Positions 16,145 through 45,158 of a DNA stretch of 64,000 nt are shown piece by piece. The DNA is from an uncultured Rhodospirillaceae bacterium. Its GTDB lineage: Bacteria > Pseudomonadota > Alphaproteobacteria > UBA11136. Numbering within the stretch: position 1 is the stretch's first letter; every line of letters starts with the position of its first letter. Below the pieces are notes generated by a model. The model had not been told where the DNA came from. It did not search any database and was given only the letters and a program-made list of their open reading frames with translations. Where the stretch lies: assembly GCA_964482135.1 (NCBI GenBank), contig CAYZWF010000006.1, positions 4,438 through 68,437 on the forward strand, in the 5' to 3' direction. Made by a program: the position numbers and the translations under genes.

Positions 16145-16168
16145 ATAAAAATAAGACGGAGACAAAGC

Positions 16169-17371: not shown

Positions 17372-17570
17372 CTGCGTACCAAGAATCTCTAAACCAGGAA
17401 TTCCCGCGCTTGGACAAAATAGGGCGCTGGTCGTTTTCTTCTTTTCTTTCTGTCCATATCACTGTCCATATCAAATAAAAATGTTTGGCGCTTGCCCCCG
17501 GGACTGGATCAAACTGGACGCCAATCAGAATCGGCTAAATTGATTTTATTCTCAGGAGATTTTACCAGGC

Positions 17571-17864: not shown

Positions 17865-17865
17865 T

Positions 17866-18561: not shown

Positions 18562-18577
18562 GTTCCGGTCAGGCACC

Positions 18578-19219
18578 GTGCAGAACAAGGTAAAGCAGAT
18601 CGTCAACGGCCCCTGGCAGCAGAATTGCTACCTGATCGGGGGTAAGGACGACGCCGCGCTTATTCTCGATCCGGGTAGCGACGCGCTATTGATTGAAAAA
18701 AGCATTGAGGATGCCGGCTTCAAACCCATCGCTATCATCAACACCCATGCCCATTACGATCATATTGGCGCGGTGGCGGCGCTGATGAAGCGCTATGCCA
18801 TTCCCTTTTATATGCACAGCAGCGACGCGGATATTCTGAAGCAGGCCAACGTCTATCGGCGGATTTTCGGCTGTTCGATTAAGGTCGAGGTGCCGGAGAT
18901 CACCCATGACCTCGCCACTCTTCCCGCGGAAATCGATATCGGACCCTTCCGGGTATCCTGGCTGGCGACACCGGGCCATACCCCGGGCAGCGTCACCTTT
19001 ACCATCGATGGCGATCTTTTTCCCGGCGACACGCTTTTTTGTGATTCCATCGGCCGCACCGACCTTCCGGGCGGTGACAGGGCGGTGCTCGCTCTGTCGT
19101 TGCGCCGAGTTACGGAACTGCCGCCGCATCTCATGTTGCGACCGGGTCACGGCCCGGCGGCGGTGCTTGGTGACATTATCGCATCCAACAAAACTCTGGC
19201 CGAGGCCATCGCCGCATGA
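18578..19219 (+). CDS. MBL-fold metallo-hydrolase (glyoxalase II/thioesterase-like)
   Basis: 'IINTHAHYDHIG' HxHxDH motif and 'TPGHTPGS'. GTG start at 18578; the long track ORF from 18236 overlaps the SDR gene. Confidence 0.7.
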   Translation: MQNKVKQIVNGPWQQNCYLIGGKDDAALILDPGSDALLIEKSIEDAGFKPIAIINTHAHYDHIGAVAALMKRYAIPFYMHSSDADILKQANVYRRIFGCSIKVEVPEITHDLATLPAEIDIGPFRVSWLATPGHTPGSVTFTIDGDLFPGDTLFCDSIGRTDLPGGDRAVLALSLRRVTELPPHLMLRPGHGPAAVLGDIIASNKTLAEAIAA

Positions 19220-20259: not shown

Positions 20260-21632
20260 GTAAGAAGGCTGTGAGTGAAATCACCTTCCTCTGTGATGCA
20301 CTTGCCAGCCGCCCCGGCGAGCCCGCCCTGATCTGGCGGGAGTCCGTCGTCACCACTGGCGACATTCTGGAATTGATAGAGGAGGCGGAAAGTCGGCTGG
20401 AAGCGGAAAGCATCAACCCCGGCGATGTGGTGCTGCTGGTGGCCGACTACTCCCCCCGGGCGGCGGCGTATCTTCTGGCCCTGATCAAGCGCCGCGCTAT
20501 TACCGTGCCCTTGACGCCGGGTGTTCTCGCTCGCTCGTCCAGGTATCTTGAAATCGCCGAACCCACCCGAGCAGTCCGTATTTCGGAAGACGACGCCGTC
20601 ACCGTGGAGATTCTTGCGTCCAGCGGTAAGGAAAACAATCTTTACGGTTGCTTGCGCTCCGATGACCGTCCCGGGCTGGTGCTCTTTACCTCCGGCTCGA
20701 CAGGTGAGCCCAAGGGTGTGGTCCACGATTTTTCCCGGCTTCTGGAAAAATTCAAACGGCCCCGCCCGACCATGAGCATGGTTGCTTTTCTGATGTTCGA
20801 TCATTGGGGTGGCCTCAACACTCTACTGCACGGATTTTCAAGCGGCAGCCTGATGGCCTTTCCCGGCGATCGCCAGCCTCATCACGTCTGCGGCCTGATC
20901 GAAAGGCACCGGTTGGAACTTCTCCCCGCCTCGCCGACCTTCCTCAACCTTCTGATTATGAGCGGCGCCCACCGGGAATCCGACCTTTCCAGCCTCAAAC
21001 TCATTACCTACGGCGCGGAACCAATGCCGCCGGCGACATTGGAAGCGGTGCGCCGCGAGTTACCCGAGGTGGAAATGCGCCAGACCTACGGCCTGATTGA
21101 GCTCGGCGTCATGCGGTCGAAATCAAAGTCCAGTGATTCGCTCTGGGTGAAGATCGGCGGTGACGGATACGAGACTCGGATCAAAGGCGGTCTTTTGGAG
21201 ATCAAGGCCGACGCCGCCATGCTTGGCTACCTCAACGCCCCCAGCCCCTTTACCGATGATGGCTGGTTCATGACCGGTGACGCCGTGGAAACCAAGGACG
21301 GCTTTTATCGCATCCTCGGGCGCGCCAGCGAACTCATCAATGTCGGCGGCCAGAAGGTTTACCCGGCGGAGGTGGAAACGGTCCTGCTTGAATGTGCGGC
21401 GGTGAAAGATGCGGTGGTCTACGGCGAACGCAATCCCATCACCGGTAAAATCGTCTGCGCCGATGTGGTGCCCGTCACGCCCGGCGACACGGCGGAACTA
21501 CGCCGGACCATCAAACGCCATTGCCAGGAAAACATGGAAAGTTTCAAGGTGCCGGTCCGTATCAACATTAAGGAAGGTGTCGTCTACGGCGACCGGTTGA
21601 AGCGCAAAAGGCCGGTGGAAAGCAAAACCTAG
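20256..21632 (+). CDS. AMP-dependent synthetase/ligase (acyl-ACP or acyl/aminoacyl-carrier ligase)
   Basis: 'LFTSGSTGEPKGV' AMP-binding motif, 'YGLIE' and 'GWFMTGD'. GTG start at 20256 just after the KAS III stop; the track ORF from 20043 overlaps KAS III. Confidence 0.75.
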   Translation: MSKKAVSEITFLCDALASRPGEPALIWRESVVTTGDILELIEEAESRLEAESINPGDVVLLVADYSPRAAAYLLALIKRRAITVPLTPGVLARSSRYLEIAEPTRAVRISEDDAVTVEILASSGKENNLYGCLRSDDRPGLVLFTSGSTGEPKGVVHDFSRLLEKFKRPRPTMSMVAFLMFDHWGGLNTLLHGFSSGSLMAFPGDRQPHHVCGLIERHRLELLPASPTFLNLLIMSGAHRESDLSSLKLITYGAEPMPPATLEAVRRELPEVEMRQTYGLIELGVMRSKSKSSDSLWVKIGGDGYETRIKGGLLEIKADAAMLGYLNAPSPFTDDGWFMTGDAVETKDGFYRILGRASELINVGGQKVYPAEVETVLLECAAVKDAVVYGERNPITGKIVCADVVPVTPGDTAELRRTIKRHCQENMESFKVPVRINIKEGVVYGDRLKRKRPVESKT

Positions 21633-21662
21633 CCCGCAACTTTAATATGTTGCGGGCTTTTT
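21632..21662. terminator. Bidirectional intrinsic terminator between the convergent ligase and carbamoyltransferase genes
   Basis: The hairpin 'gcccgcaac-tttaatat-gttgcgggc' is followed by 'ttttt'. Confidence 0.6.
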
Positions 21663-21677
21663 GCCGCCTGACCGGTC

Positions 21678-23381
21678 CTATCTCAGCGATACGCGTTGCG
21701 ATTCCACATACAACGCATCAATTGTTCCGGTTAATAAAATTTTTAATGCGTCGTCTACGGCACAGATTATCGGTTCCTCATGAGTATTGAAGGATGTGTT
21801 GATCAACGCATATTCGCCGGTTTTTTCGAACCATTGACTGACCACAGCCCACATGAAGGGATCGTTGTCTTTTCTAATGACATGGGGACGCGCAGTGCCA
21901 TCAACATGAGTTACCGCGGAACACTTGCTGGAGAATTCATCCGTACAATTTACGGTAGATGTCATGAAATTAAATGTTATGTCGGATTCCAGAAACCCTA
22001 TGAAGGCCTTTTTGGCCAGTTCAGTGGTGGTAACGGGAGCAAAAGGCATGAACTCCGTTCTGTGCAATCGCTCGTTAAGCAATTTGTTGCAGGATTGGTC
22101 TGACGTTTTATAAAGAATTGATCTATTGCACAGCGCCCGGGGGCCGAATTCCATCCTTCCTCGAACGAGTCCGACAACCTTGCCAGAGATCAGGTCTTCA
22201 ACCAATTCGCCAACGGTGTTTTCAGGCTGTTCAACCGTTATTTTTTGTAGGACGTCATCTGGCTGTTTGTTGATCTCATCCACGTCTATGGACGGCCCGA
22301 GATATACATGGGTCATGGGAGAGATTTTCAATCCCGCCGAATGTTGAGCATAAGCGGCAGCGCCAAGACAAAGGCCACCGTCACCCATTTGTGGCTGTAT
22401 AAACATCTGTTTTATGTGTGGCAGTTCTTTCAGGGTTTGATTGGCTTTAACATTGCCGAAAATACCGCCCGCGCATACTAGTGGAATGTCCTTGAGCTCA
22501 TATTTTTCACAGACGTGAACGACGATTTTACAGAGCAAATCTTCCAGGTGTTGTTGGGCCGCCGCGGCAATATCCTCTCTTGAATAGCGCGAGATCTCTT
22601 TTTGTAGGGCATCACTGTAGTTCGTATAAAAAGGCCGATATAAGTCACCAAGTTTGGCTTTCAGTTCTCCATCTTCGAAATCGATCATCCCCTGCATGAG
22701 TCCGATGGCATTCTTGGGGTCTCCATGAGCCGCCAGTCCCGTTATTTTTCCCTCATGCCGGCAGGGTTTGAACCCCAGCAGGCCAGTAATGCGCCCATAA
22801 AAAAAGCCCAGACTGTCCGAAGATGTGGAAGCGTATATTTTACGCATAACCGGCTCAGAGGCCGTGTCATAAAGCCAACACGTTAATGACTCGTAATCAC
22901 CCCTTGCATCCGCCGTTAAGACGAGAGCCCTCTGATAAGGGCTCAACAAACAGGCGCTGTAGGCATGTGCCTCATGATGGAAACATGTAATGAGGGGGGG
23001 GTGTCCCTGGGCGGGAAAATGTTCATCGAACCAACCCTTAAATTCATTTTTATTGGCTTCGTCTCTTTCTGTTTCGATGCGTATTCTTTCTGAAAAAATA
23101 TCAAGTGCAGTTTTATCTTCTTCAGCCAACTCAACAGCACGCGCTGCGTAAATCGGAAGCAGCTCTTCCTGGAAGTCTTTCCCCCAGGCATATGCCACCT
23201 GATCGATATCTGTAAGATTTACTCCAGCCTCTCTGAGCACGTATTCAATCGAACGAATGGGAAAGGATTCGTCCATTTTTATTCTAGAAAATCGTTCTTC
23301 GCTCGCAGCGGCTATCAACTCACCATCTTTGAAGCAGCAGGCAGAGGCGGTTTCTGCATTACAGATACCTAATGTTATCAC
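21678..23381 (-). CDS. NodU/CmcH-family carbamoyltransferase
   Basis: N-terminus 'ILGICNAETASACCFKDGELIAAASEERFSRIK' (carbamoyltransferase N domain). C-terminal transferase domain 'VNTSFNTHEEPI'. About 45% GC. The start was moved to the GTG at 23381 (or the TTG at 23396), because the track's start at 23468 overlaps the tRNA. Confidence 0.75.
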   Translation of the reverse strand: MITLGICNAETASACCFKDGELIAAASEERFSRIKMDESFPIRSIEYVLREAGVNLTDIDQVAYAWGKDFQEELLPIYAARAVELAEEDKTALDIFSERIRIETERDEANKNEFKGWFDEHFPAQGHPPLITCFHHEAHAYSACLLSPYQRALVLTADARGDYESLTCWLYDTASEPVMRKIYASTSSDSLGFFYGRITGLLGFKPCRHEGKITGLAAHGDPKNAIGLMQGMIDFEDGELKAKLGDLYRPFYTNYSDALQKEISRYSREDIAAAAQQHLEDLLCKIVVHVCEKYELKDIPLVCAGGIFGNVKANQTLKELPHIKQMFIQPQMGDGGLCLGAAAYAQHSAGLKISPMTHVYLGPSIDVDEINKQPDDVLQKITVEQPENTVGELVEDLISGKVVGLVRGRMEFGPRALCNRSILYKTSDQSCNKLLNERLHRTEFMPFAPVTTTELAKKAFIGFLESDITFNFMTSTVNCTDEFSSKCSAVTHVDGTARPHVIRKDNDPFMWAVVSQWFEKTGEYALINTSFNTHEEPIICAVDDALKILLTGTIDALYVESQRVSLR

Positions 23382-23421
23382 CTGAAAAACCCTCAATCGT
23401 TGATTGTCGATATTTGATAAA

Positions 23422-23511
23422 TGGCGGTGGGGGTGGGATTCGAACCCACGGTACCCGCAAGGGCACAACGGTTTTCGAGACCGCCCCGTTCAACCACTCC
23501 GGCACCCCACC
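23422..23511 (-). tRNA. tRNA-Ser (anticodon CGA)
   Basis: The reverse complement gives GGTGGGG…GGTCTCGAAAACC…GTGGGTTCGAATCCCACCCCCACCGCCA. It has a 7-bp acceptor stem, a long variable arm, a T-loop GGTTCGAATCC and 3' CCA. Length 90 nt. Confidence 0.85.
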
Positions 23512-29272: not shown

Positions 29273-29734
29273 GTGCGTCTGTGGATTGCTGCCGTGGGCC
29301 GTGGGGGCCGCGCCGTCAGCAGCGGCGTCTATGAAGACTATGCGCGGCGGCTGAACTGGCCGCTGGAATTGCGCGAGGTGGACCTGCGCCAGACCCTGTC
29401 GCCGGAAAAACGAAAAATCCGTGAGTCCGAAAAGCTGTTGGCCGCGGTGCCCGAAGGGGCGGTGCTGGTGGCCCTGGATGAAAAGGGCAAGGCCCTTTCC
29501 AGCCGCGAGTTTGCGCTAAAGCTGGGGGGCTGGCGCGACGACGGCGTTGCCGATCTTGCCTTTCTCATCGGTGGCGCCGACGGGCTCGACCCAAGCATAA
29601 GAAAAAAGGCGGCGCTGGTGCTGTCCCTCGGCGCCATGACCTGGCCCCATCTTCTGGTGCGGGGCATGCTCGCCGAACAGCTGTACCGGGCGCAGTCCAT
29701 CCTCACCGGCCACCCCTATCACCGTGAGGGATAA
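29273..29734 (+). CDS. rlmH: 23S rRNA (pseudouridine1915-N3)-methyltransferase RlmH
   Basis: 154 aa SPOUT-fold protein with 'VALDEKGKALSSREFA' and 'FLIGGADGL'. GTG start at V55 of the track ORF. Confidence 0.85.
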   Translation: MRLWIAAVGRGGRAVSSGVYEDYARRLNWPLELREVDLRQTLSPEKRKIRESEKLLAAVPEGAVLVALDEKGKALSSREFALKLGGWRDDGVADLAFLIGGADGLDPSIRKKAALVLSLGAMTWPHLLVRGMLAEQLYRAQSILTGHPYHREG

Positions 29735-29752: not shown

Positions 29753-30550
29753 ATGAAGCCGGAAATGTTTAGCATACATGCCGATGTGGAAGCCCGGCAC
29801 TGGTGGTTCGAGGCGCGCCGCCGCATCCTGTTTCCCCTCATTCGCCAGGTCATGGCGGGGCAGGAGGGCGAGATCATCGTCGATGTGGGTTGCGGCACGG
29901 GAGGGACCGTCGCCGCCCTCTGTAGAGAATACGATTGTGTGGGTATCGACGATTCGAAGCTGGCCATCGAAACCGCCGAGGCCGCCTATCCCCAGGCCAC
30001 CCATCCCCGGGGCGGCTTTCGCCTTGGCCGTATGCCCGATGACCTTCGCGACCTGGCTCCCCGCACGGGGCTCTATCTGCTCATGGATGTTCTCGAGCAT
30101 GTGGAGGACGACCGCGCCTTTCTTGCCGATCTCATCGCCCTGGCCCGGCCCGGCGCGCATATTCTGATTACGGTTCCCGCCGGCCCGCAGCTGTGGAGCC
30201 GCCACGACATTACCGCCGGGCATCTGCGCCGCTATGAACACGATACCCTTACATCCCTGTGGCGGAACCAAGGCGTTTCGCCGCGTCTGGTGACCTTCTT
30301 CAACAGCCGTCTCTATCCCTTGATCCGGCTGGCTCGATACGCGGGCAACCGCTTTGGGGCCTCCTGCGGACGCGAGGGCAGCGATTTCCATGTGCCGCCA
30401 CCGCCCGTTAATGCGCTTTTGGAGGGCATATTCGCCGGCGAAGGAGGCCGCATCCTCTCCCGCCTCGACCAGCCGGAAACGGCGGCCTATGAACACGGGG
30501 TCAGCCTGTTGGCGCTGATCCGATGTGCGGAATTGAACCGCTCCCCGTGA
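29753..30550 (+). CDS. Class I SAM-dependent methyltransferase
   Basis: 'IVDVGCGTGG' motif I. 265 aa. First gene of the sugar-tailoring cluster. Confidence 0.8.
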   Translation: MKPEMFSIHADVEARHWWFEARRRILFPLIRQVMAGQEGEIIVDVGCGTGGTVAALCREYDCVGIDDSKLAIETAEAAYPQATHPRGGFRLGRMPDDLRDLAPRTGLYLLMDVLEHVEDDRAFLADLIALARPGAHILITVPAGPQLWSRHDITAGHLRRYEHDTLTSLWRNQGVSPRLVTFFNSRLYPLIRLARYAGNRFGASCGREGSDFHVPPPPVNALLEGIFAGEGGRILSRLDQPETAAYEHGVSLLALIRCAELNRSP

Positions 30551-30617
30551 AATGCCATAAAAGACTTCTTGTTTCCCGCCCTCCGTTTCAGAAATTTTTC
30601 CCCATGGATATGAAGAT

Positions 30618-31052
30618 ATGGATGTGAAGATTGATCCGGTAACAGAAGAAGAAAAGGCAAGATGGCCCAAGGAGGTTATCGTCCCCCTGCTGGATCCCTT
30701 TGTGGATGCCCGTGGCGCTATCCAGCCGCTGGTGGACGAGGACATGAAGAGCTGTGTTCTCATTTCCTCCAAGAAAGGCACGGTGCGGGCCAACCACTAT
30801 CACAAGACTGACTGGCATTACTGTTACGTGCTGGTGGGAAAGATCGAATATTACCACCGCCCCACGGGAAGCGACGCGGCGCCAGAGAAAGTGATGGTGG
30901 AGGCGGGGCAGATGTTCTTCACGCCGCCCATGGTGGATCATTCCATGGTCTTTCCCGAGGAAGCGGTCTTCATCACCTGGGGGCGCAATTCCCGCCTTCA
31001 GGAGGTCTATGAAGCCGACGTGGTGCGTATCGATCCCATCGAGCCGTCATGA
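30618..31052 (+). CDS. Small cupin, WxcM/FdtA-like sugar 3,4-ketoisomerase (tentative; an RmlC-type epimerase is not excluded)
   Basis: 144 aa with 'HYHKTDWHYCYVLVGKIEY' cupin motifs. Size and context match NDP-keto-sugar isomerases. Confidence 0.5.
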   Translation: MDVKIDPVTEEEKARWPKEVIVPLLDPFVDARGAIQPLVDEDMKSCVLISSKKGTVRANHYHKTDWHYCYVLVGKIEYYHRPTGSDAAPEKVMVEAGQMFFTPPMVDHSMVFPEEAVFITWGRNSRLQEVYEADVVRIDPIEPS

Positions 31053-32302
31053 ACGATGCCGCCGGCGCTTGCCGCCGTCGCGCCACATGCAGACTGTGCG
31101 ACAGTGGCGACCTCTCCCTTGTCCTGTCTTTAACGCCGACGCCGCCGGCAAACGCCTTCGTCACCGCCGCCGGTCTGGACACGTCCCAGGAATGTTTCCC
31201 GCTCGATCTGCATCTCTGTGGCGAGTGCGGCCATCTCCAGCTTCTCCACGTGGTGGACCCGTCCGTGCTGTTCGCCGATTACGTCTATGTGTCGGGAACC
31301 TCACCTTCCTTCGTCGCCCATTTCGAGAATTATGCCGCAAGCATTATGGAAACCTACCAGCCGCCGCCCGGCGCCCTGGTGGTGGACATCGGCTCCAACG
31401 ACGGCACCCTGCTGCGCTTCTTTCAACAAGCGGGAATGGCCGTTCAGGGCGTCGATCCGGCGCGTGATATTGCGCGTGCCGCGTCGGAGGCGGGAATCGA
31501 GACCCTCAACGCCTTTTTCGATGCCGCTCTGGCCGCGCAAATCCGCGAGGATAAAGGCGCCGCCGCCGTGGTCACGGCCAATAACGTGTTCGCCCATATT
31601 GATGATCTGGCGGGCGTGGTAGCCGGCGTGCGGGTGCTTCTCGACGACGGTGGCGTGTTCGTCTTCGAGGTTTCCTATCTTGCCGACGTGCTGGAGAAGA
31701 CCCTGTTCGACACCATCTATCACGAGCATCTTTCCTATCACGGGGTGGCGCCGCTGGTGTCTTTCTTCGCCGCCAACGGTATGGAACTCATCGCCGCCGA
31801 GCGGGTGGATACCCATGGCGGCAGCCTGCGCGGCGTGGCCCAGCTTGCCGGTGGCGCCCGCCCGGTGGCGGCATCGGTGGCGGCCTGTCTGGATTTGGAG
31901 GATCGCCTTGGTTTGGGGAAGCCTGAGACCTTTCATGAATTTGCGCGGCGCATTGACGCCCTCAAGACATCTTTGCGCGACCTGTTGGCGGGGCTGAAGG
32001 CCGAGGGGCGGTCCATCTCCGGTTACGGCGCGCCGGCCAAGGCCACCACCCTGATGTATCATTTCGGCCTCGGCCCCGATATCATCGACTTCATCGTCGA
32101 TGACAGCCCCTTGAAACAGGGCCTTTATTCACCCGGCCTGCATGTTCCGGTGCTCCCCTCGGGGGCCATAACCGAACACAGGCCCGATTATCTGTTAATC
32201 CTGGCGTGGAATTTTGCCCAACCCATCATGGCCAATAATTCGGCATTTCATGAGGCGGGGGGGCGTTTCATCATTCCCGTTCCCGAACTGGAAGTAGTGT
32301 AA
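31049..32302 (+). CDS. NDP-hexose/pentose C-methyltransferase (TylCIII/NovU-like, with N-terminal zinc ribbon)
   Basis: CxxC…CxxC ('CRLCDSG…CGECGH'), then class I MT motif 'VVDIGSNDG' and C-terminal domain 'YHEHLSYH'. Start overlaps the previous stop (ATGA). Confidence 0.75.
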   Translation: MNDAAGACRRRATCRLCDSGDLSLVLSLTPTPPANAFVTAAGLDTSQECFPLDLHLCGECGHLQLLHVVDPSVLFADYVYVSGTSPSFVAHFENYAASIMETYQPPPGALVVDIGSNDGTLLRFFQQAGMAVQGVDPARDIARAASEAGIETLNAFFDAALAAQIREDKGAAAVVTANNVFAHIDDLAGVVAGVRVLLDDGGVFVFEVSYLADVLEKTLFDTIYHEHLSYHGVAPLVSFFAANGMELIAAERVDTHGGSLRGVAQLAGGARPVAASVAACLDLEDRLGLGKPETFHEFARRIDALKTSLRDLLAGLKAEGRSISGYGAPAKATTLMYHFGLGPDIIDFIVDDSPLKQGLYSPGLHVPVLPSGAITEHRPDYLLILAWNFAQPIMANNSAFHEAGGRFIIPVPELEVV

Positions 32303-32305
32303 AAT

Positions 32306-33364
32306 ATGAAGGGTTCTTATCTCGACAGCGATATCGCGGAAATTGCCGGCCGTCTCGGCGAACGGGCGGACATGCTTGCCGGCAAGACGGTGCTTTTGAC
32401 CGGCGCGCGGGGGTTTCTCGGCCGTTACTTCACCAGGGTTTTCGCCCATCTCAACGAACACAGGCTGGACAAACCCTGTTCCGTGATCGCGCTCGACAAC
32501 CTGATCACCTCCGGCGTGGCCGGGGAAACCATCCCCGATATTCCCAATTTCGAATTTCTCCGCCATGACGTGACCGAACCCTTCACGCCTGATGGCAAGG
32601 TGGATTTCGTGGTTCACGCGGCGGGTATCGCCAGCCCCTTCCATTATCGCGCCCACCCCATGGAAACGCTGGAAGTGGCTATCTGGGGCACCCGCAACAT
32701 GCTGGATGTGGCGCGCCGTGACGACGCCAGCTTTACCTTCTTTTCATCAAGCGAGATTTATGGTGACCCCGATCCCCGCCACGTGCCGTCGCCGGAAAGC
32801 TATCGCGGTAACGTGGCGAGCCAGGGGCCGCGCGCCTGTTACGACGAGAGCAAACGCGTCGGCGAGACCCTGTGCTACATCTATCACGAGTATCACGGGG
32901 TCCATACCAACATCATCCGCCCCTTCAACGTATTTGGCCCCGGCATGCAGAAGACCGACTACCGGGTGTTGCCTAATTTCGCCGCCCATATTCAGGAAGG
33001 CGAGCCCCTTAACGTCTATGGCAGCGGCACCCAGACCCGCACCTTCTGTTACATCACCGACGCCATGGTGGGATTTCTGCTCACCGTTCTCTCCGGCGTG
33101 CCTGGCGAAACCTATAATATCGGTAATCCCAAGCCAGAGATTTCCATGCTCGATCTGGTGGGGCGGGTGACGAACGTTCTCGGGCGCGAGATACCCCACA
33201 ATGTGATCGAGCATCCCGACAGCTATCCCGCCGACGAGCCCAACCGCCGCTGTCCCGATATCCGCAAGGCGGAACTCCAGCTCGACTACACGCCGAAGGT
33301 GGAGCTGGATGACGGCCTGTCGCGTTTTTTCACCTGGGCGGACAAATTTTATGCGGGGCCCTAG
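32306..33364 (+). CDS. NAD-dependent epimerase/dehydratase, UDP-glucuronate decarboxylase (UXS/ArnA-C)-like
   Basis: 'VLLTGARGFLG' and catalytic 'YDESKRVGE' (Y-x3-K). Extended SDR of 352 aa. Confidence 0.8.
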   Translation: MKGSYLDSDIAEIAGRLGERADMLAGKTVLLTGARGFLGRYFTRVFAHLNEHRLDKPCSVIALDNLITSGVAGETIPDIPNFEFLRHDVTEPFTPDGKVDFVVHAAGIASPFHYRAHPMETLEVAIWGTRNMLDVARRDDASFTFFSSSEIYGDPDPRHVPSPESYRGNVASQGPRACYDESKRVGETLCYIYHEYHGVHTNIIRPFNVFGPGMQKTDYRVLPNFAAHIQEGEPLNVYGSGTQTRTFCYITDAMVGFLLTVLSGVPGETYNIGNPKPEISMLDLVGRVTNVLGREIPHNVIEHPDSYPADEPNRRCPDIRKAELQLDYTPKVELDDGLSRFFTWADKFYAGP

Positions 33365-33396
33365 GGGTCACAGAGGCCTGCGGGACGGAGGCAGGG

Positions 33397-34344
33397 ATGC
33401 CTGAGTTGCGGCTTGGCCTGATCGGCGCCGGGCGCTGGGGCCGCGTCTACATGAATACACTGGACGACATGGCGGGTGTGACCTTAAGCGCGCTCGCCAG
33501 TTCCAACCCCCACAGCCGTGATTTGGCGGGCGAAGATGTGGCCGTCCACGAGGACTGGCGGGATCTTATCAAGGCCGGCGGCGTGGACGGGATCATCGTC
33601 GCCACGCCGCCCGCGACCCATGCCGAGATCGTCGGCGCGGCGCTGGAAGCCGGGCTGCCGGTTCTGGTGGAAAAACCGCTGACCCTGGACGTGGACGAGG
33701 CCCGGGCGCTTTGCGATCTGGCCCAAGCAAGGGACGGCCTGGTGATGGTGGATCATATCCATCTCTTCAGCCCCGCCTTTCGTGCCCTGAAACGCGAAGC
33801 AGCCAAGCTGGGCCCGCTGCGCCGCATGGAATCCGAGGCCGGCAGCCAGGGTCCCTTCCGCAAGGCGACGCCGGTTTTGTGGGATTGGGGCGCCCATGAT
33901 ATCTCCATGTGCCTCGATCTCATGGGTGAAGCGCCCTCGGAGATCTCCGCGCGTTGTCTGGAGATGCGGGAAACCGGGGAAGGCTCCGGCGCGGTCTTCG
34001 ATCTGCGCCTTGAATTTGCCGATGAAACAACAGCGGGGATACGCATCGGCAATCTGCTGCCCGGAAAACGACGGCGTTTCTGTGCCGCCTTCGATGCCGG
34101 GATTCTGGTTTATGACGATCTGGCGGCGGACAAGCTGACCTTGGTTCCCACATCCCCCTCTCCAGAGGCCGAAATACGCGCCATCGCCGTGACGCCCGAC
34201 CTGCCCCTGACCTGCGCGGTCAGGGAATTCACGGAAGCTATTACCTCCGGTTCGCGCTCGCGGGAGAGCCTGCAATTGGGACTTTCGGTGGTGGAGACCC
34301 TGGCTAGGTGCGAGGCGGCGCTGGAGGGGTCACAGCCGGAATAA
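33397..34344 (+). CDS. Gfo/Idh/MocA-family NAD(P)-dependent oxidoreductase
   Basis: 'LRLGLIGAGRWGRVY' Rossmann N-terminus and 'EKPLTL' motif. Confidence 0.8.
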   Translation: MPELRLGLIGAGRWGRVYMNTLDDMAGVTLSALASSNPHSRDLAGEDVAVHEDWRDLIKAGGVDGIIVATPPATHAEIVGAALEAGLPVLVEKPLTLDVDEARALCDLAQARDGLVMVDHIHLFSPAFRALKREAAKLGPLRRMESEAGSQGPFRKATPVLWDWGAHDISMCLDLMGEAPSEISARCLEMRETGEGSGAVFDLRLEFADETTAGIRIGNLLPGKRRRFCAAFDAGILVYDDLAADKLTLVPTSPSPEAEIRAIAVTPDLPLTCAVREFTEAITSGSRSRESLQLGLSVVETLARCEAALEGSQPE

Positions 34345-34530
34345 AGGTCAGGGCTATGGCGTTGATATGCCCCGCCGTTTTCCCTAAAGTAGCGGCGCCG
34401 GATCAGGGCTCGATTTAAAGTTTTTTGTGTGGTTTTCAGGCGTTTCCGGACCAATATTCAGATATATTACGGAAGAAACTCAGATCGGGGGCTGTGTCGG
34501 GACCGCCTCCGGAATTTACGAGTAGGGTGC

Positions 34531-35988
34531 ATGAAGGTTCTTCTTATATTCAAGGATTCCGTTGCCGTGGAACGCATGGCGATTTGCTATATCAGCTCAG
34601 CGCTGAAGGCGGCCGGAAATGATGTAAAGCTCTGGATTATGAACGTGAATCCGCCTGAGCGGCTTCACGAATATATGTCGGAATACAGGCCAGATATTGT
34701 CGGCTATTCCTCCATGACCGGGGAACATATCCCGCTGGCGGCCTTGAATCGGGAACTGAAGGAACAATACGATTTCTTCTCCGTATTCGGCGGGCCTCAC
34801 GCCACATTCGTTCCCGATTTCATCGAAGAAGAGGTCTCGGTGGATGCCGCATGCACCGGTGAAGGCGATCTCGTGTTTCCGGAATTATGCCGAAGAATGG
34901 AGGCGGGCGAGGAATACTGGCTGACTCCCACGTTCGACGTTCGCTATGAGGGAAAGATACATAGAAACCTCTTGGGTGATCTGACGCCCACCCTTGAGAC
35001 GCTTGATGATCCCGACCGCCAGATTCTCTATGACGCCGATCCCAGGCTGGGCAAGCTGGGAACCAAGTATTTCATGGCCGCCCGCGGTTGCCCCTACAAA
35101 TGCTCGTACTGTTTCAATGTGAAATACAACGAAAACTACAAGGGCAAGGGAAAGGTGGTGCGTTGCCGCACCCCGCGTCAGGTGATTGATGAAATCAAGT
35201 GGGTCATGGAGCGCTACCCCTTAGACCATGTGTCGTTCCTCGACGATCTGTTCATTCTCAAGCCCAAGGAATGGCTGGTGGAATTTTCGCGGTTGTTCAA
35301 GGAAGAAGTCGGTCTGCAATGGTCTTGCACGGTGCGGGCCAACACCGCCAATCTCGGCGGTGAGACCACCATTTCCATGCTCAGCGATTCGGGGCTTTCC
35401 TGGGTGTGGATGGGCGTGGAATGCGGTGACCAGAAGGTGGCCAATGAAATTCTGGTGAGAGACCTCACCAATGACGAGATCACCCAGGCCACGCAGCTTT
35501 TGCACAAATACAATGTGGGGACCATCGCCCAGAATATTTTAGGCTTGCCGGTTCCCGATCCCATCAAGACGGATTTGGTCACACTGGACTTCAATATCGA
35601 CCTTCGGCCCTCTCTGGGGCATCCGTCCATTCTCTACCCCTATCCGGGATCACCCATCGAGACCTATTCCCGCGAACACGGTTATCTGGAAGGCGAGCCC
35701 GAGTATATGGAAACGACGAAACGTTCTTCCATGCTGAAGTTCTCCTCAGAGAATGACAAACATAAGATCGAGAACCTGCACAAGCTTTTCGGCATTATTG
35801 TCCGCTTCCCCGTCCTTCGGCCCTATACGGAATTCCTGATCAGCCTGCCTCTAACGCCTCTGTACCGGGCTGTTTTCTACCTGTGGTACGGGTATTGTTT
35901 CAAAATCAAACTGGCCAAGATCAAGAGGCTCCATAAGGAAATTCCCTATTTTACGGGCCTCTTTTTCAGGATGCTGGCCAAGTCGTAA
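34531..35988 (+). CDS. B12-binding domain radical SAM enzyme (class B radical SAM methyltransferase-like)
   Basis: N-terminal B12-binding-like fold, then a 'CPYKCSYC' CxxxCxxC cluster. AT-rich, about 50% GC. Start is M35 of the track ORF. Confidence 0.75.
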   Translation: MKVLLIFKDSVAVERMAICYISSALKAAGNDVKLWIMNVNPPERLHEYMSEYRPDIVGYSSMTGEHIPLAALNRELKEQYDFFSVFGGPHATFVPDFIEEEVSVDAACTGEGDLVFPELCRRMEAGEEYWLTPTFDVRYEGKIHRNLLGDLTPTLETLDDPDRQILYDADPRLGKLGTKYFMAARGCPYKCSYCFNVKYNENYKGKGKVVRCRTPRQVIDEIKWVMERYPLDHVSFLDDLFILKPKEWLVEFSRLFKEEVGLQWSCTVRANTANLGGETTISMLSDSGLSWVWMGVECGDQKVANEILVRDLTNDEITQATQLLHKYNVGTIAQNILGLPVPDPIKTDLVTLDFNIDLRPSLGHPSILYPYPGSPIETYSREHGYLEGEPEYMETTKRSSMLKFSSENDKHKIENLHKLFGIIVRFPVLRPYTEFLISLPLTPLYRAVFYLWYGYCFKIKLAKIKRLHKEIPYFTGLFFRMLAKS

Positions 35989-36105
35989 ACGCCTCCCTCT
36001 CCCGGTCTCCCCCATTGGGGCGACGGTGTGGTCCTTGCCCCCCCGCCTGTGATCAGGTACTAATTCTGGCGCACCAGCACCGCCTGAATCAAAGGGCTTT
36101 ACGCC

Positions 36106-37089
36106 ATGCCTTCTTCCTTTGCCGGGAAATCCGTCGTCATCCTTACCGCACAGTATAATGACTGGGTTTCCCTCGGCCATCTGCTTCCCCTCATCGACGA
36201 AAATCTAGCTCCCCTGGGGGTAGAGGCCCGGGTAGTGGTGGTGGATGATGGCTCCATTGATTCCGATGGCAAGGAATTGCTGGGCGGTCTTTCGCTCAAG
36301 GCGATCGAGTCCATCGAGGAAGTGGTGCTGGGGGATAACCAGGGGAATCAGCGGGCCATGGCCATTGGCCTGGCTCATGTGGCGGAGCATTACGACTGTG
36401 ACTATCTGTTGCTCATTGACAGCGATTTTGAAGACAACCCCGAATATATCCCGCAACTGCTCGAGGCCTGCCGTTCCGGTGGGGACAAGGAAATCATGTT
36501 TGCCGAACGCTCCAAGCGCTCGGAAGGGATGCTCTTTCTCTTTTTCTACAAGCTTTACCAGAAAATCTATAAAGCCTTCACCCGGCACAATATCGCCGTG
36601 GGTAATTTCAGCGTAGTGCCGGGGCATCTGATCCGCCGTCTCGCCCATGTGGGGGAGTTGTGGAACCATTTGCCCGCCAGCATCATGCGTTCCGGGCTGC
36701 CGTTTTCTTCCATTCCCACCCTGCGCGGAAAACGCCTCTACGGTAAAAGCAGCATGAATCTGGTGCGGCTGGTGGTCCATGCTTTCAGCGCATTTACCAT
36801 TTTCGCCGATGTATTTGCGGTGCGGTTGATCCTGTGGACGCTGGGGCTGGTATTTTTATTTGTTCTGGGCGGCGTGGTTCTGGTGGGGCTCAAATTCGGC
36901 GCCGGGGTGGCGGCTCTGGGCTGGCCTTCGCAGATGGTGGGACTGCTTCTTGTTATTCTGCTCCAGGTTCTCGGCATGTCCGTGATTCTGTTATTTCTGG
37001 CCTTGTCCATGCGTCTGAAGCCGCCCATGATTCCGGCCCATGATTACGGAAAATTCATCTACGAGGTGAACCGGCTCTACCCGTCATGA
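36106..37089 (+). CDS. GT2 polyprenyl-phosphate sugar synthase (ArnC/GtrB/CsbB/DPM1-like) with C-terminal TM anchor
   Basis: 'VVVVDDGSIDS', 'LLLIDSDFEDNPEYIP' and two C-terminal TM helices. Confidence 0.8.
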   Translation: MPSSFAGKSVVILTAQYNDWVSLGHLLPLIDENLAPLGVEARVVVVDDGSIDSDGKELLGGLSLKAIESIEEVVLGDNQGNQRAMAIGLAHVAEHYDCDYLLLIDSDFEDNPEYIPQLLEACRSGGDKEIMFAERSKRSEGMLFLFFYKLYQKIYKAFTRHNIAVGNFSVVPGHLIRRLAHVGELWNHLPASIMRSGLPFSSIPTLRGKRLYGKSSMNLVRLVVHAFSAFTIFADVFAVRLILWTLGLVFLFVLGGVVLVGLKFGAGVAALGWPSQMVGLLLVILLQVLGMSVILLFLALSMRLKPPMIPAHDYGKFIYEVNRLYPS

Positions 37090-39191
37090 TGACCCTTATT
37101 TCCTCGGCGTGGCGCGGCAATCCGGTTCTGTTTGCCGGTCTTGTCTGGCTTACGGTTGAATTTTTTATTGCCGGCCCCTTTTCCTTTTTTCGTATAGGGG
37201 AAAATGCCGACGCCTATATCCCCCCCTTCATGGCCTATGGGGCGTCTTTCCTTGAGGGCGCCTATTGGTACCCTGCCATGGCGGGGGGCACCGACCGCCT
37301 TGCCCTGGGATTTTTCGGCGGGCTGGACACGTTTCTGTTCTGGCTGTTGCCGGGCTGGCTTGCCGCCCAAATATTCGTGGTGGCCCAGTTCGTTCTGGGC
37401 GGTGGCGCCACCTATCTCATCTGCCGCAAGCATCTCAATCTGGGGATAGAGGCCGCCACCTTCGCGGGGCTGGCCTTCGCTCTGGAGGCGTCTCCGGGAA
37501 TGCACGAACACAACACCGTGATGTTTTTCCCGGTGCTGATCTGGGCCATCAGCCGGGGCCTCGATGAAAGCCTCCCCGTTCTGCGCCGCGCCGCCTGGCT
37601 GGTGGTGGTTCCCCTGGCCTATGGCATGTGCACCCTGGCGGCCTATCTCTATCATTTTCCCATAGTAAGCGTTGTGTTCTGGTTCGCCGTGGTCGCGCCA
37701 CCACGTTCGTTGCGGCGGTGGGGGCTGGTGGCCGGGGCGTGTTTCCTGGCTTTGCTGCCGCGCCTTCAGGACGCCATTGCCCTGGCGCTGCACGCTCCCT
37801 TTTCACATCGTATCCACTGGAACATGGAGATTTTCCAGCCCCCCGATATGGCGGAGTTTTTTGCTCATGTGTTCAACTTTCCCCTGTCCACGGAGTTGAA
37901 TCTTCTGTTGGTGGCTTTGGCATTTTGCGCTTGGACGCTGAGGCGCCATGGAGGAGATTTCAACGATGGCGGATTGTGGCGGGTCTCGGCCGTTTTCCTT
38001 TTTCTCTGGTTGGCGCCGCCGCTTTTGGAATATCTGCGGCCGTTGTTGCTGTTGGTCTTCCCCTTTGCCGAGGCCTTCCAGATCAAACGTATCGCCCTGA
38101 CCATTCCCTTTTTCGCCGCACTCATGGGGGGGCTGGGCCTCGAAGTCCTGAGAGGCGCGCTGAAGGGGCGCTCATTCACGCTGCCGCGGCTGGGCGCCGT
38201 GGGAGCCGGAAAACTGGCCTATGTGGCGGCGCTGGGAGTGCTTGCGGTGCTCTCTCTCGAGGTCAAATACAGTCATGCCCTTGAGTGGGTGAGATATGGG
38301 AACTACGTAAACAACTTCTCCCGGCGCGCCGCAGAGGACTTTGCCGCCGAGCGCCCCGTGGCCGATGATCCCTACCGTATCGCCGCCTACCAGCTCTATC
38401 CCGTCCTTTTTCAGGCCTATGGGCTGGAGACGGCGGGGGGCTATATGAACATGTATTCCCGGCGCTATATGGAATTCTGGAACCGGGTGATTGAAAAACG
38501 GGAGCGCCAGCGAGGCGTGGAAGGGGAGTTTCTGAGTTGGGGCAGCCGCGTCAATCTCAGCGCCGACTTGCACGAGCCCCGCCTCAAGCTGGGCGATCAT
38601 TACAACTTGTCCCTGCTCTCTTTGGCTAATGTGCGCTATCTGTTCGCCCGCGACCAATTGTTGGACCAACAGTTTTCCGCCGTGGTTTCGGCGGACAAGC
38701 CCTGGAACACGATGGATAACCGGGAAAAGGCCATGGTTCATGTGGCTGCCAATTTCGGCGGTGAGAATCCGCTCAATATTTACCGTAACGCGGACGCCTT
38801 CCCCCGCTTCTTCCTGGTTCCCTCTGTGCGGGAATTCGCCGACGAATCCACCCTTCTCGATGCCATGGCCGGGGCCGACACCGGGGCCTTGCGCAAGGAT
38901 GTTTTCGTGGAAAAGGGCTGGCTGAAGGAAGATGTGGCGGCAAATCTGGGTTTTGCCGAGGGTGCCGTGGATCTGGTGTCGTACAAGCCCGACCGTATCG
39001 AGCTTGATCTGCGCGCCGACGGGCCGGCCATTCTCGCCGTCGCCAATTCCTACAGCCCCTACTGGCGGGTTCGCGTGGATGGCGAGGCGGCGGAAATTTT
39101 CCCCGCCTATCACACCTTCTGGGGCGTGGTGGTGGCGGCGGGTGCGCACCATGTCGTATTTGACTATGTTCCCCCCTACCGCCTTTGGTAG
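37086..39191 (+). CDS. YfhO-family polytopic membrane glycosyltransferase
   Basis: 701 aa. The N-terminal half has >10 TM helices. The C-terminal domain ends in the YfhO-typical 'NSYSPYWRVRVDGEAAEIFPAYHTFWGVVVAAGAHHVVFDYVPP'. Start overlaps the GT2 stop. Confidence 0.7.
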   Translation: MMTLISSAWRGNPVLFAGLVWLTVEFFIAGPFSFFRIGENADAYIPPFMAYGASFLEGAYWYPAMAGGTDRLALGFFGGLDTFLFWLLPGWLAAQIFVVAQFVLGGGATYLICRKHLNLGIEAATFAGLAFALEASPGMHEHNTVMFFPVLIWAISRGLDESLPVLRRAAWLVVVPLAYGMCTLAAYLYHFPIVSVVFWFAVVAPPRSLRRWGLVAGACFLALLPRLQDAIALALHAPFSHRIHWNMEIFQPPDMAEFFAHVFNFPLSTELNLLLVALAFCAWTLRRHGGDFNDGGLWRVSAVFLFLWLAPPLLEYLRPLLLLVFPFAEAFQIKRIALTIPFFAALMGGLGLEVLRGALKGRSFTLPRLGAVGAGKLAYVAALGVLAVLSLEVKYSHALEWVRYGNYVNNFSRRAAEDFAAERPVADDPYRIAAYQLYPVLFQAYGLETAGGYMNMYSRRYMEFWNRVIEKRERQRGVEGEFLSWGSRVNLSADLHEPRLKLGDHYNLSLLSLANVRYLFARDQLLDQQFSAVVSADKPWNTMDNREKAMVHVAANFGGENPLNIYRNADAFPRFFLVPSVREFADESTLLDAMAGADTGALRKDVFVEKGWLKEDVAANLGFAEGAVDLVSYKPDRIELDLRADGPAILAVANSYSPYWRVRVDGEAAEIFPAYHTFWGVVVAAGAHHVVFDYVPPYRLW

Positions 39192-43595: not shown

Positions 43596-45158
43596 GTGAC
43601 TGAATCGGACGACGACATAACCGAAGACGAAGACGCCGCGGAAGACGTTCCTGACGACGACTCTGATAATGACTCCGGTGATGACTCCGGTGATGACTCT
43701 GGGGATGACTCTGGGGATTCCGATGAGGCTGCCTCCGACAACATCACCGATGACATCGACTTCGATGATGTCGACTCCGGGGGTGACGACAGTCCCAGCG
43801 AGGAAGACTTAGAAGAAGATTTCGAAGAAGACTCCGATGAAACAGACGAGACCAATCTCGATCCCTTCGCCGACAAGGAAGATGAGGATCTTTCCTTCCT
43901 CATGGATGAGGCGGACGAAGAAGGGTATATTGATCTCAGTGAAGACGAGGAAGAGGAAGACACGTCCGGCGGAGGGTTCCGGGTCAGCTTTCTTCTCGTG
44001 GCCTATCTTGTGGCGCTGTTGTTCTTCGGCGGGGTTATCGGCTGGCTGCTGATGAGCGGAGAGGAAGAGGCGAGCACCGCAGAGACCACTACGACGACCT
44101 TCACATCATTGCTTCCCCCGGAAATGGAGGAATCTGAGCGCGCCTCGATTTGGGGTGACGATCCGGCGGGCATGGCCGGGCCGGGAGCAGCCTCCGAAAC
44201 GGCCATGGTCAACGGCGATGGCATGACAGACGGGGCGGAGGAAGGAATTCAGTCTCCCGCGCGGCTTCTCCCCCGTGCTTTCCTTGAAAAGGAAATGGCT
44301 CAACTCACCCCAAGCCCCGATCCGGAGCTGGTGGAAGAGATGGCGGATGGCCCGCTGCCAAAAATTGCCGAAGATGGCCGTATGTCGTTCCGGGTTTATG
44401 CCCGGCCTTTCGACCATAACGAGCAGCGTCCGCGCATCGCCGTCATTATCCAGAATATGGGGCTAAGCCACAACGCGACGGAAACCGCAATTCAACAGCT
44501 TCCCGGATCCGTCACCCTGGCTTTCTCGCCTTATGCCGACAATCTTGAGCACTGGACCACCGAAGCGCGCAAGACCGGCCACGAGATATTGCTGGCTATG
44601 CCCATGGAACCGGTGAATTATCCTCTCAACGATCCCGGCCCCTACGCATTGATTACCGGGCTTTCTCCCGAACAGAACGCAAAGCGCCTGCAATGGCTGA
44701 TGAGCCGGTTTACCGGCTACGTGGGCGTGACAAACGAAATGGGCTCGCGCTTTATTACCTCCAACCAGGATATAAGGCCGGTACTGGAAATCTTTCATAA
44801 TCGCGGCCTTATGTTCGTGGACAACCGCGTTACCAGCCGCAGCGTCGCCACCCGGGTGGCTCAGGATGTAGGCCTGCCCTGGGCCGCCGGCGACAGGTCC
44901 ATCGACCGCAATCCCTCACGCCAGTATATCGACGACAAACTGGCCGAGATCCAACGCATTGCTCTCGACAAGGGGAGCGCCGTGGCCATGGCCTTGCCCT
45001 ATCCCGTGACTTTTGAACGTCTTGCCCTATGGCTGCCGAAGCTGGAAGAGGAAGGCTTCGTGGTGGCCCCGGTTTCGGCGGTGATCCACCAGCAGGAACC
45101 CAGGGAAGAAGAAGAGGAAAGCGAAGAAGCAGAGGCAAACGATGAAGGAGAACAGTGA
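43596..45158 (+). CDS. Divergent polysaccharide deacetylase (YibQ/DUF610) with a ~150-aa poly-acidic N-terminal region and one TM helix
   Basis: N-terminus D/E/S-rich with (DSGD)n. TM helix 'FLLVAYLVALLFFGGVIGWLL'. C-terminal 'RIAVIIQNMGLS…VDNRVT' YibQ-type domain. Confidence 0.75.
   Translation: MTESDDDITEDEDAAEDVPDDDSDNDSGDDSGDDSGDDSGDSDEAASDNITDDIDFDDVDSGGDDSPSEEDLEEDFEEDSDETDETNLDPFADKEDEDLSFLMDEADEEGYIDLSEDEEEEDTSGGGFRVSFLLVAYLVALLFFGGVIGWLLMSGEEEASTAETTTTTFTSLLPPEMEESERASIWGDDPAGMAGPGAASETAMVNGDGMTDGAEEGIQSPARLLPRAFLEKEMAQLTPSPDPELVEEMADGPLPKIAEDGRMSFRVYARPFDHNEQRPRIAVIIQNMGLSHNATETAIQQLPGSVTLAFSPYADNLEHWTTEARKTGHEILLAMPMEPVNYPLNDPGPYALITGLSPEQNAKRLQWLMSRFTGYVGVTNEMGSRFITSNQDIRPVLEIFHNRGLMFVDNRVTSRSVATRVAQDVGLPWAAGDRSIDRNPSRQYIDDKLAEIQRIALDKGSAVAMALPYPVTFERLALWLPKLEEEGFVVAPVSAVIHQQEPREEEEESEEAEANDEGEQ

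Follow-up and report, generated by a model that had tools for sequence, protein, structure and literature searches.

A B12-binding-domain radical SAM protein of a large uncharacterised family in a sugar-tailoring island of an uncultured marine alphaproteobacterium: a probable cobalamin protein and a candidate sugar methylase

The DNA analysed here is a 64-kb window of contig CAYZWF010000006.1, from an uncultured marine alphaproteobacterium, and all positions are those of this whole window. The gene in question encodes a 485-aa protein that joins a B12-binding domain to a radical S-adenosylmethionine (SAM) domain. It lies in an island of eight genes (9.4 kb, 29753-39191) between rlmH and gpmI, in the order rpmA-obg-proB-proA-nadD-rsfS-rlmH, the eight island genes, gpmI-M23 peptidase-ctpA. 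The island and its two flanking genes are given below (NDP, nucleoside diphosphate; UDP, uridine diphosphate; SDR, short-chain dehydrogenase/reductase; GT, glycosyltransferase).

29273..29734, + strand: rlmH, left flank, 153 aa; NCBIfam RlmH 172.6 bits, cut-off 169
29753..30550, + strand: class I SAM methyltransferase, 265 aa, first island gene; Pfam Methyltransf_23/25/11/12
30618..31052, + strand: small cupin protein, 144 aa; Pfam Cupin_2, 28 bits
31049..32302, + strand: NDP-sugar 3-C-methyltransferase (TylC3/TcaB9/KijD1 type), 417 aa; Pfam Methyltransf_13 and Methyltransf_14
32306..33364, + strand: UDP-glucuronate decarboxylase-like SDR (UXS / UDP-4-keto-pentose synthase type), 352 aa
33397..34344, + strand: GFO/IDH/MocA NAD(P) oxidoreductase, 315 aa; Pfam
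34531..35988, + strand: B12-binding-domain radical SAM protein, 485 aa, stop-terminated; Pfam PF02310 and PF04055
36106..37089, + strand: polyprenyl-phosphate glycosyltransferase GT2 (GtrB/ArnC/DPMS type), 327 aa; Pfam GT2
37086..39191, + strand: YfhO/DUF6044-type polytopic membrane protein, 701 aa, last island gene; DUF6044 49.6 bits, YfhO 31.3 bits
39345..40922, + strand: gpmI, right flank; NCBIfam TIGR01307 637 bits

An in-frame GTG upstream of the radical SAM gene, at 34429, would permit a longer open reading frame (ORF). We place the start at ATG 34531 because the alignments with homologues, which are 480-486 aa long, begin at residue 1 (MKVLLI...). The B12-binding domain (PF02310) covers residues 15-119 with 58.5 bits against a cut-off of 32.1, and the radical SAM domain (PF04055) covers residues 185-340 with 44.2 bits against 29.5. 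Pfam and the translation thus agree with the sequence-only reading of this DNA, which had seen a B12-binding-like N-terminal domain and a CPYKCSYC cluster in a 485-aa protein. The elements within the protein, including the motifs assigned to cobalamin (Cbl) binding, are the following.

34573..34887, + strand: N-terminal Rossmann-type cobalamin-binding domain, residues 15-119; Pfam
34702-34716, + strand: Cbl motif G58-Y-S60-S-M62, in register with TokK A70-x-S72-x-Y74
34789-34794, + strand: Cbl motif G87-G88, register from the TokK alignment
34858-34863, + strand: Cbl motif G110-E111, aligned with the GE of TokK
35089..35112, + strand: CxxxCxxC [4Fe-4S]/SAM cluster motif C187-PYK-C191-SY-C194; from the sequence

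Conservation was counted across 135 relatives with 32-54% identity, and the three cysteines of the cluster motif (C187, C191, C194) are invariant in all 135. An AlphaFold2 model built from 38 homologues reaches a predicted local distance difference test score (pLDDT) of 91.5 and a predicted template modelling score (pTM) of 0.90. Searched with Foldseek, this model matches MgmA, OxsB, TokK, AprD4, CysS and TsrM about equally well (E 1e-17 to 1e-20, 13-18% identity). The CxxxCxxC motif, a core domain above the curated threshold and a model matching radical SAM structures together place the protein in the radical SAM superfamily.

Three elements for cobalamin are known from the structures of OxsB, TsrM and TokK: a G/A-x-S/T-x-X motif in the beta-3/alpha-3 loop, a Gly-Gly on beta-4 at the dimethylbenzimidazole pocket and a Gly-Glu at the start of alpha-5, which touches the cobalamin tail (PMC9204698). 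With the register set by the alignment to TokK, G87 is kept in 135 and G88 in 134 of the 135 relatives, and G110 and E111 are kept in 134 and 131. In the loop motif, position 58 is Ala or Gly in 120 of them and position 60 is Ser in 117 and Thr in nine (Ser or Thr in 126). Cobalamin dependence is likely because all three motifs are present and nearly invariant, and from its sequence the 485-aa protein very probably binds cobalamin.

These motifs bear directly on one alternative, an AprD4-like 1,2-diol dehydratase. Here, the radical SAM protein would deoxygenate a sugar and the GFO oxidoreductase encoded upstream would reduce the ketone, as AprD4 and AprD3 do on paromamine. AprD4 is the best sequence match among solved structures, although the alignment is confined to the core (residues 141-391 of the protein, 39 bits; positions 170-391 of the family profile, 81 bits). 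The two would have in common the radical SAM core, a sugar substrate and the need for a reductase partner; AprD4 acts on a sugar diol and requires an NADPH-dependent reductase (PMC5461906), and the GFO gene stands directly upstream of the radical SAM gene both in the window and in the locus of an 80%-identical relative (L090). However, AprD4 does not bind cobalamin (PMC12931638), whereas the window family conserves the cobalamin motifs, and an enzyme with AprD4 chemistry would have no use for the near-invariant GG, GE and G-x-S. The score to the NCBIfam model of the AprD4 diol dehydratase (NF033070) is only 46.4 bits against a cut-off of 500, and MoeK5, HpnJ and BchE all outscore AprD4 on the same profile. 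The GFO gene is also an inconsistent neighbour, found at 8 of 87 loci, four of which are copies of the window's own locus. We therefore consider an AprD4-like reaction quite improbable.

The other island genes place the radical SAM protein among sugar-tailoring enzymes. The 3-C-methyltransferase matches TcaB9 with 260 bits and, better still, D-mycarose 3-C-methyltransferase (4rv9) with 336 bits; enzymes of the TylC3/TcaB9 type require a 4-keto sugar. The UXS-like SDR matches human UXS1 (2b69, 4gll; 212 bits, E 1e-61) and, more weakly, ArnA and UDP-apiose/xylose synthase. The GFO oxidoreductase, with 247 bits (E 2e-72) to PDB 3c1a, a structure annotated only as "putative oxidoreductase", is a candidate sugar keto-reductase or dehydrogenase, and the cupin protein, for which a search of PDB sequences returned no match, is a possible sugar epimerase or ketoisomerase. 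ArnC is the best NCBIfam match of the GT2 protein; in PDB its best matches, GtrB sll0501 (55.6 bits) and ArnC (50 bits), align over residues 8-298, membrane helices included, and DPMS scores 24 bits. Four C-terminal hydrophobic segments fall within residues 219-303. The last island gene overlaps the GT2 stop by 4 nt. Its 701-aa product exceeds the cut-offs of both DUF6044 and YfhO and contains at least six hydrophobic segments; its sequence suggests a GT-C-like transferase that would use a lipid-linked sugar donor.

The sugar cluster proposed in the sequence-only reading therefore stands, as a sugar-tailoring island with a TylC3/TcaB9-type 3-C-methyltransferase and a second methyltransferase. 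Both methyltransferase genes are real, but they are not adjacent to the radical SAM gene, as had been stated; the C-methyltransferase lies three genes and the class I enzyme five genes upstream. The idea that one sugar receives three methylations is conjecture.

The radical SAM protein belongs to a very large family. It comprises 1,555 clusters at 50% identity (E <= 1e-30), a word-indexed search gives more than 1,000 matches (43-98% identity among the 120 matches listed), and members occur at 478 or more genome loci. These span Chloroflexota, Omnitrophota, Patescibacteria, DPANN archaea, Desulfobacterota, Nitrospinota, Flavobacteriaceae, Sorangium and others. Cultured carriers are Magnetospira sp. 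QH-2, Solidesulfovibrio magneticus RS-1 (on plasmid pDMC1) and a Sorangium strain. A search of the full-text literature found no published characterisation of the family, nor of a B12-binding radical SAM enzyme in the context of O-antigen, capsule, lipopolysaccharide or lipid-linked glycans.

The neighbourhoods of the family were compared by clustering the ORFs within 6 kb of 82 non-redundant loci. Genes for GT2 enzymes occur at 23 of these loci, SPASM radical SAM proteins at 17, methyltransferases at 10, DegT aminotransferases and GT4 enzymes at 9 each, and GDP-mannose-dehydratase-type SDRs and TMEM260-like GT-C proteins at 6 each. Among 134 immediate neighbours the top Pfam assignments are paralogous B12-binding radical SAM proteins (13), GT2 (9-12) and the GT-C families PMT_2 (6) and TMEM260-like (4).

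The pattern is much stronger among close relatives, which are six distinct loci with 57-80% identity (L005, L007, L088, L089, L090 and L091). A large polytopic membrane protein is encoded within a few genes in all six and a GT2 enzyme in five, the exception being L090, which is a short contig. The window has a polytopic protein of the YfhO/DUF6044 type, and so do L007, L088 and L090; L005 and L091 have one of the PMT_2 type, while that of L089 has 469 aa and is unclassified. More widely, among the 26 closest loci 18 encode a polytopic protein of 450 aa or more no further than 6 kb away, and in about nine of them it is the direct neighbour; seven of ten such proteins tested match GT-C Pfam families. 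The coupling to GT2 and GT-C is firm only for the subfamily around the window gene, and the strong pattern is limited to identities above about 39%.

Several of these loci have features of their own. In L090 (948-4273) the DUF6044/YfhO gene, 76% identical to that of the window, directly follows the radical SAM gene with no GT2 gene between; the window and L098 both have a GT2 gene ahead of the YfhO gene. One member of the 90% cluster of the L090 protein is labelled Nitrospinota, by horizontal transfer or a binning error. L007 is the locus of Magnetospira sp. QH-2, and about 6 kb upstream of its radical SAM gene it encodes, at 2339-6283, a different B12-binding radical SAM protein (549 aa), followed by an aminotransferase and a SPASM radical SAM protein. 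On pDMC1 of S. magneticus RS-1 (L095, 58.7 kb) a three-gene block at 9962-15523 consists of a family member (30% identity, 97% coverage) and, after it, the genes of two hypothetical proteins (460 and 835 aa). Transposase genes of the IS66 family and others bracket the block, which points to a mobile module, here in a cultured organism.

We suggest that the protein is a cobalamin-dependent radical SAM tailoring enzyme of this large uncharacterised family of about 480-aa proteins housed in cell-envelope glycan clusters, and that it catalyses methyl transfer, a reading to which we give an even chance. The data establish the domain architecture, the cluster and cobalamin motifs, the nature of the partner genes, the island and the synteny with GT2 and GT-C genes; the order of the pathway, the methyl-transfer chemistry, the substrate and the acceptor are inferred. 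The island would then be an Arn-like pathway in which (i) the UXS-like decarboxylase converts UDP-glucuronate to a UDP-4-keto-pentose; (ii) the TylC3-type enzyme methylates C3 of this intermediate; and (iii) the cupin protein, the GFO oxidoreductase and the class I methyltransferase complete the sugar. Completion would involve reduction here, and amination and acylation in Magnetospira, where a DegT aminotransferase and a hexapeptide acyltransferase are encoded in place of the GFO protein; the class I methyltransferase may O- or N-methylate the sugar. The GtrB/ArnC-type GT2 enzyme would put the sugar on polyprenyl phosphate and, after flipping, the YfhO/DUF6044 GT-C-type protein would move it to an envelope acceptor. 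Within this pathway the radical SAM protein would use a 5'-deoxyadenosyl radical to take a hydrogen from an unactivated carbon of the nucleotide-linked or lipid-linked sugar, and methylcobalamin would supply the methyl group.

Methylation is the best prior for the chemistry, because C-methyltransferases are by far the most represented activity among these enzymes and are present in every characterised group of the network, according to a 2026 review (PMC12931638). The nearest reference point by score is MoeK5, which is counted among the Csp3 C-methyltransferases (PMC12931638). In bits to the family profile (alignment A1), the MoeK5 orthologue reaches 122, HpnJ 107, BchE 106, AprD4 81, TokK 58, MgmA 40 and CysS 34. 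These seven made up the reference set; the MoeK5 orthologue was taken from the Streptomyces clavuligerus megaplasmid and recognised by the gene order epimerase, AsnB, 411-aa ORF, AsnB-like, radical SAM, while BchE and HpnJ are annotated proteins of plasmid records, HpnJ with hpnI beside it. Tandem paralogues, two to four, occur at 25 of the 82 loci. Such arrays are typical of site-specific methylases, for example PoyB/C, BotRMT1-3 and GenK/GenD1. The slightly higher score of MoeK5 and the tandem paralogues weakly back methylation.

A number of observations weigh against this reading. The 485-aa protein reaches no NCBIfam equivalog, and its three best models, all far under cut-off, are HpnJ (TIGR03471, 84.6 bits against 577.6), the ladderane-lipid radical SAM enzyme (83.3 bits) and BchE (TIGR02026, 76.7 against 481), ahead of PhpK and HpnR. 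The methylase models give 60.6 of 600 bits for PhpK, 57.9 of 650 for HpnR, 56.6 of 282 for the C-methyltransferase of ribosomally synthesised and post-translationally modified peptides, 36.4 of 700 for KedN5 and 29.1 of 360 for the MgmA type. Pairwise, the window protein is equidistant from MoeK5, BchE and HpnJ (85-87 bits and 24-27% identity each), and non-methylating members have no sequence or structural features that separate them from methylases (PMC12931638). In the pathway itself, the UXS-like enzyme might merely make UDP-xylose without releasing a 4-keto intermediate, and none of the eight island genes is a candidate flippase of the GtrA or ArnE/F type. Over the 82 loci, large membrane proteins are only weakly enriched close to the radical SAM gene compared with further away (odds ratio 1.67, p = 0.07), and for GT2 such an enrichment is absent (odds ratio 1.2, p = 0.63). 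Finally, orthologues of about 60% identity adjoin different sets of sugar genes, of the pentose type in the window and in Magnetospira and of a PseB/DegT hexosamine type in L088, which is awkward if it is the specialised sugar that the enzyme recognises.

The three enzymes with the highest profile scores are closer to one another than to the window protein. MoeK5 and BchE share 146 bits, MoeK5 and HpnJ 117 bits, and the mutual range is 78-146 bits; the window-protein family therefore forms a clade of its own beside the BchE/MoeK5/HpnJ group. Placement in a characterised subfamily was attempted by NCBIfam, PDB sequence and profile search, Foldseek and reference scoring; all were non-discriminating, with matches 13-27% identical. 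The class B label of the sequence-only reading is thus fair as far as cobalamin dependence goes, since the cobalamin motifs are conserved, while the methylation that it assumes is a hypothesis, no curated methylase model being reached. A grouping with BchE-like enzymes, which would have spoken against that reading, is undecidable by sequence because methylases and non-methylases share their features (PMC12931638), and the reaction cannot be named from sequence.

This leads to a second alternative, in which the radical SAM protein does not methylate and instead rearranges, contracts or cyclises the lipid-linked sugar in the manner of HpnJ, OxsB or BchE, the modified polyprenyl-phosphate sugar being the GT-C donor. 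HpnJ performs a ring contraction on glucosamine that has been attached to bacteriohopanetetrol by the GT2 enzyme HpnI. The hpnJ gene beside hpnI in Paraburkholderia mirrors the adjacency of radical SAM and GT2 genes in the window, L005, L088 and L089, and in both cases a B12-binding radical SAM gene stands next to a GT2 that places, or would place, a sugar on a lipid. However, the window island contains neither hopanoid genes nor an HpnK-type deacetylase, and the lipid would be polyprenyl phosphate. The order of the best NCBIfam models and the closeness of HpnJ and BchE to MoeK5 on the family profile are what such an enzyme could give, as is the absence of features marking non-methylating members, but the scores are far under the cut-offs (85 against 578 bits for HpnJ). 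Non-methylating enzymes are moreover a minority of those characterised (PMC12931638), and the tandem paralogues suit regiospecific tailoring better than a single skeletal rearrangement. On balance a rearrangement appears unlikely. As a separate observation, on a plasmid of Paraburkholderia graminis (L097, 3644-7384) hpnJ and hpnI are followed by a protein with a lysylphosphatidylglycerol-synthase transmembrane domain, and the same domain occurs three genes from the radical SAM gene of L005.

The nucleotide-sugar genes differ among the six close relatives. Because they vary while GT2 and GT-C persist, there is room for the radical SAM protein to act on a lipid-linked sugar or on a component that all these pathways share. 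In the latter case the target would be the polyprenyl carrier, a membrane lipid or the GT-C acceptor and not the specialised sugar. Orthologues with 57-67% identity keep GT2/GT-C while the sugar-tailoring genes change, as this would require. HpnP/HpnR and the archaeal Gmm, which resembles MoeK5 (PMC11214058), are precedents for lipid methylation by B12-binding radical SAM enzymes, and the best NCBIfam scores are to enzymes with lipid or other hydrophobic substrates. Lipid-biosynthesis genes are, however, not consistently near, the neighbourhoods being glycan clusters. In a check for membrane anchoring, the protein is predicted to have no transmembrane segments, and the amphipathicity of its C-terminal helices is ordinary, with moderate hydrophobic moments (0.24-0.45). 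We regard a shared target as improbable.

In the former case the radical SAM protein could be an unrecognised extra component of polyprenyl-phosphate (GT2 + GT-C) glycosylation. It would apply cobalamin-dependent radical chemistry to the lipid-loaded sugar headgroup at the cytoplasmic face of the membrane, and the GT-C protein would then export a C-alkylated or rearranged sugar beyond the reach of ordinary nucleotide-sugar chemistry. This proposal is a tentative one, and we hold it as doubtful. If it were true, the module would be widespread (about 1,555 clusters, in Chloroflexota, Omnitrophota, Patescibacteria, DPANN archaea and marine Proteobacteria), and it would make a surface glycan partly B12-dependent.

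Returning to methyl transfer as the preferred reading, moenomycin biosynthesis is among the closest known systems. The substrate of MoeK5 is a uronic acid linked to lipid phosphoglycerate, which the enzyme methylates at a carbon of the sugar. MoeK5 has the same two-domain architecture as the window protein and is the best-scoring characterised relative among those compared. It differs in its low similarity (24% identity, 85 bits pairwise), in being nearer to BchE and HpnJ than to the window protein, and in belonging to a Streptomyces antibiotic pathway and not to an envelope-glycan island. AsnB-like amidotransferases accompany MoeK5, and likewise the radical SAM relatives in L005, L008 and L091; the relatives in L005 and L088 have carbamoyltransferase genes close by, and one such enzyme, MoeM5, belongs to the moenomycin pathway. 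The association is not general in the window-protein family, as AsnB and carbamoyltransferase occur at 4 and 1 of the 82 loci. A "moenuronamide-like" triad of AsnB, carbamoyltransferase and radical SAM protein was accordingly set aside, being confined to few close relatives, and is kept as a lead. AsnB, carbamoyltransferase and PMT_2 genes are also present elsewhere in the window, and genes of these kinds flank the relatives in L005, L088 and L091.

The likeness to class B methylases of the GenK/GenD1/Fom3 type is one of cobalamin-dependent radical SAM architecture. GenK and GenD1 are C-methylases of unactivated sugar carbons, and the partner of GenD1 is the GFO-family oxidoreductase GenD2 (see also PMC4340712). 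GenK/Fom3-type methylases act on free aminoglycoside or phosphonate intermediates of secondary metabolism, and the solved methylases TokK, CysS and MgmA are all weak matches to the family profile. On the side of glycan assembly, the island shares its GT2 and YfhO/DUF6044 pair with three-component glycosylation, i.e., ArnC/ArnT for lipid A, CsbB/YfhO for lipoteichoic acid and GtrB/GtrA/Gtr, and like the Arn pathway its route would begin with a UDP-glucuronate decarboxylase. We know of no three-component lipid-linked glycosylation system with a radical SAM enzyme or a C-methyltransferase.

What is known of cobalamin-dependent radical SAM enzymes concerns almost wholly antibiotics, cofactors, lipids and peptides, and their largest sequence groups are unexplored (PMC12931638). 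What is new here is a very large unstudied B12-binding radical SAM family tied to lipid-carrier (GT2 + GT-C) envelope glycosylation. If a surface sugar is alkylated or rearranged by it, the envelopes of bacteria and archaea would contain branched or C-methylated sugars of a new class, and lipid-linked glycosylation would gain a new step. Marine B12 availability would then be linked to cell-surface structure and so possibly to recognition by phages and grazers.

The sequence-only reading had also taken the low GC content of the gene as a sign that it was acquired separately from its neighbours. The gene is indeed AT-richer: its GC is 0.525, while its flanking genes have 0.60-0.65 and the 48 ORFs of the window average 0.601 (standard deviation 0.049). 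However, the deficit lies mostly in codon positions 1 (0.535) and 2 (0.364) and goes back to the abundance of Lys, Phe, Tyr, Asn and Ile in the protein, while GC at third positions (GC3) is unremarkable (0.67-0.675; window mean 0.703, standard deviation 0.072). The adjoining GT2 gene is alike (GC 0.553, GC3 0.683), and the window has much stronger low-GC tracts between 13.5 and 17.4 kb and between 21.7 and 23.5 kb. The radical SAM gene of Magnetospira sp. QH-2 (57% identity) is directly beside orthologues of the cupin (69%), C-methyltransferase (61%) and UXS-like SDR (63%), and in a Methanosarcinales metagenome-assembled genome the same four are found together with identities of 43%, 34%, 44% and 48%. 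We reject separate acquisition of the gene as unsupported because GC3 is only about 0.4 standard deviations below the window mean and the gene travels together with these neighbours.

The unit that was inserted or acquired is the whole eight-gene island and not a single gene. An island-free relative, the alphaproteobacterial contig L099 with a 63%-identical GpmI, has the same flanks and a gap of about 560 bp between rlmH and gpmI that contains only a small ORF of 101 aa. All 24 contigs with an identical GpmI carry the island, which rules out strain-level presence or absence among them, and a population with a 91%-identical GpmI carries it as well. A separate transcription unit of the radical SAM, GT2 and YfhO genes was considered and dropped; promoter- and terminator-like sites in the region 29.0-39.5 kb are no commoner than in shuffled sequences. 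A search of the window for a cobalamin riboswitch or another RNA found a tRNA-Ser alone.

This tRNA-Ser(CGA) (23422-23511, - strand) marks the end of a low-GC tract (13523-23511, GC 0.45-0.55) that is compositionally far more foreign-looking than the radical SAM gene. The tract encodes an AMP-binding enzyme, a protein of the metallo-beta-lactamase fold and a carbamoyltransferase (ORF 21678-23468, GC 0.47) with an annotated start that overlaps the tRNA gene. At 14919-17372 there is a tandem duplication with a unit of 1227 bp and a GC of 0.45 in the 0.60 window. Its central ~1170 bp are identical, and all 14 mismatches sit at its edges, no more than about 10 nt from the start or about 50 nt from the end; two near-identical genes for class I methyltransferases of 400 aa result (14942-16144 and 16169-17371). 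Either a recent duplication or an assembly artefact is possible.

A second and larger glycan-type cluster lies upstream of the housekeeping block, at 340-13422. It contains genes for an aminoglycoside-N-acetyltransferase-like protein, a NeuB-like synthase, a methyltransferase, a GT4 enzyme, two AsnB-like proteins and a PMT_2 GT-C protein. Adenosine 5'-phosphosulfate kinase and ATP sulfurylase, which suggest sulfation, are encoded there too, as are a pyruvate kinase and an ATP-binding cassette (ABC) ATPase. Downstream of the island, between ctpA and a NUDIX gene, a conserved ORF of 520 aa (43596-45158) matches no Pfam family in any contig examined.

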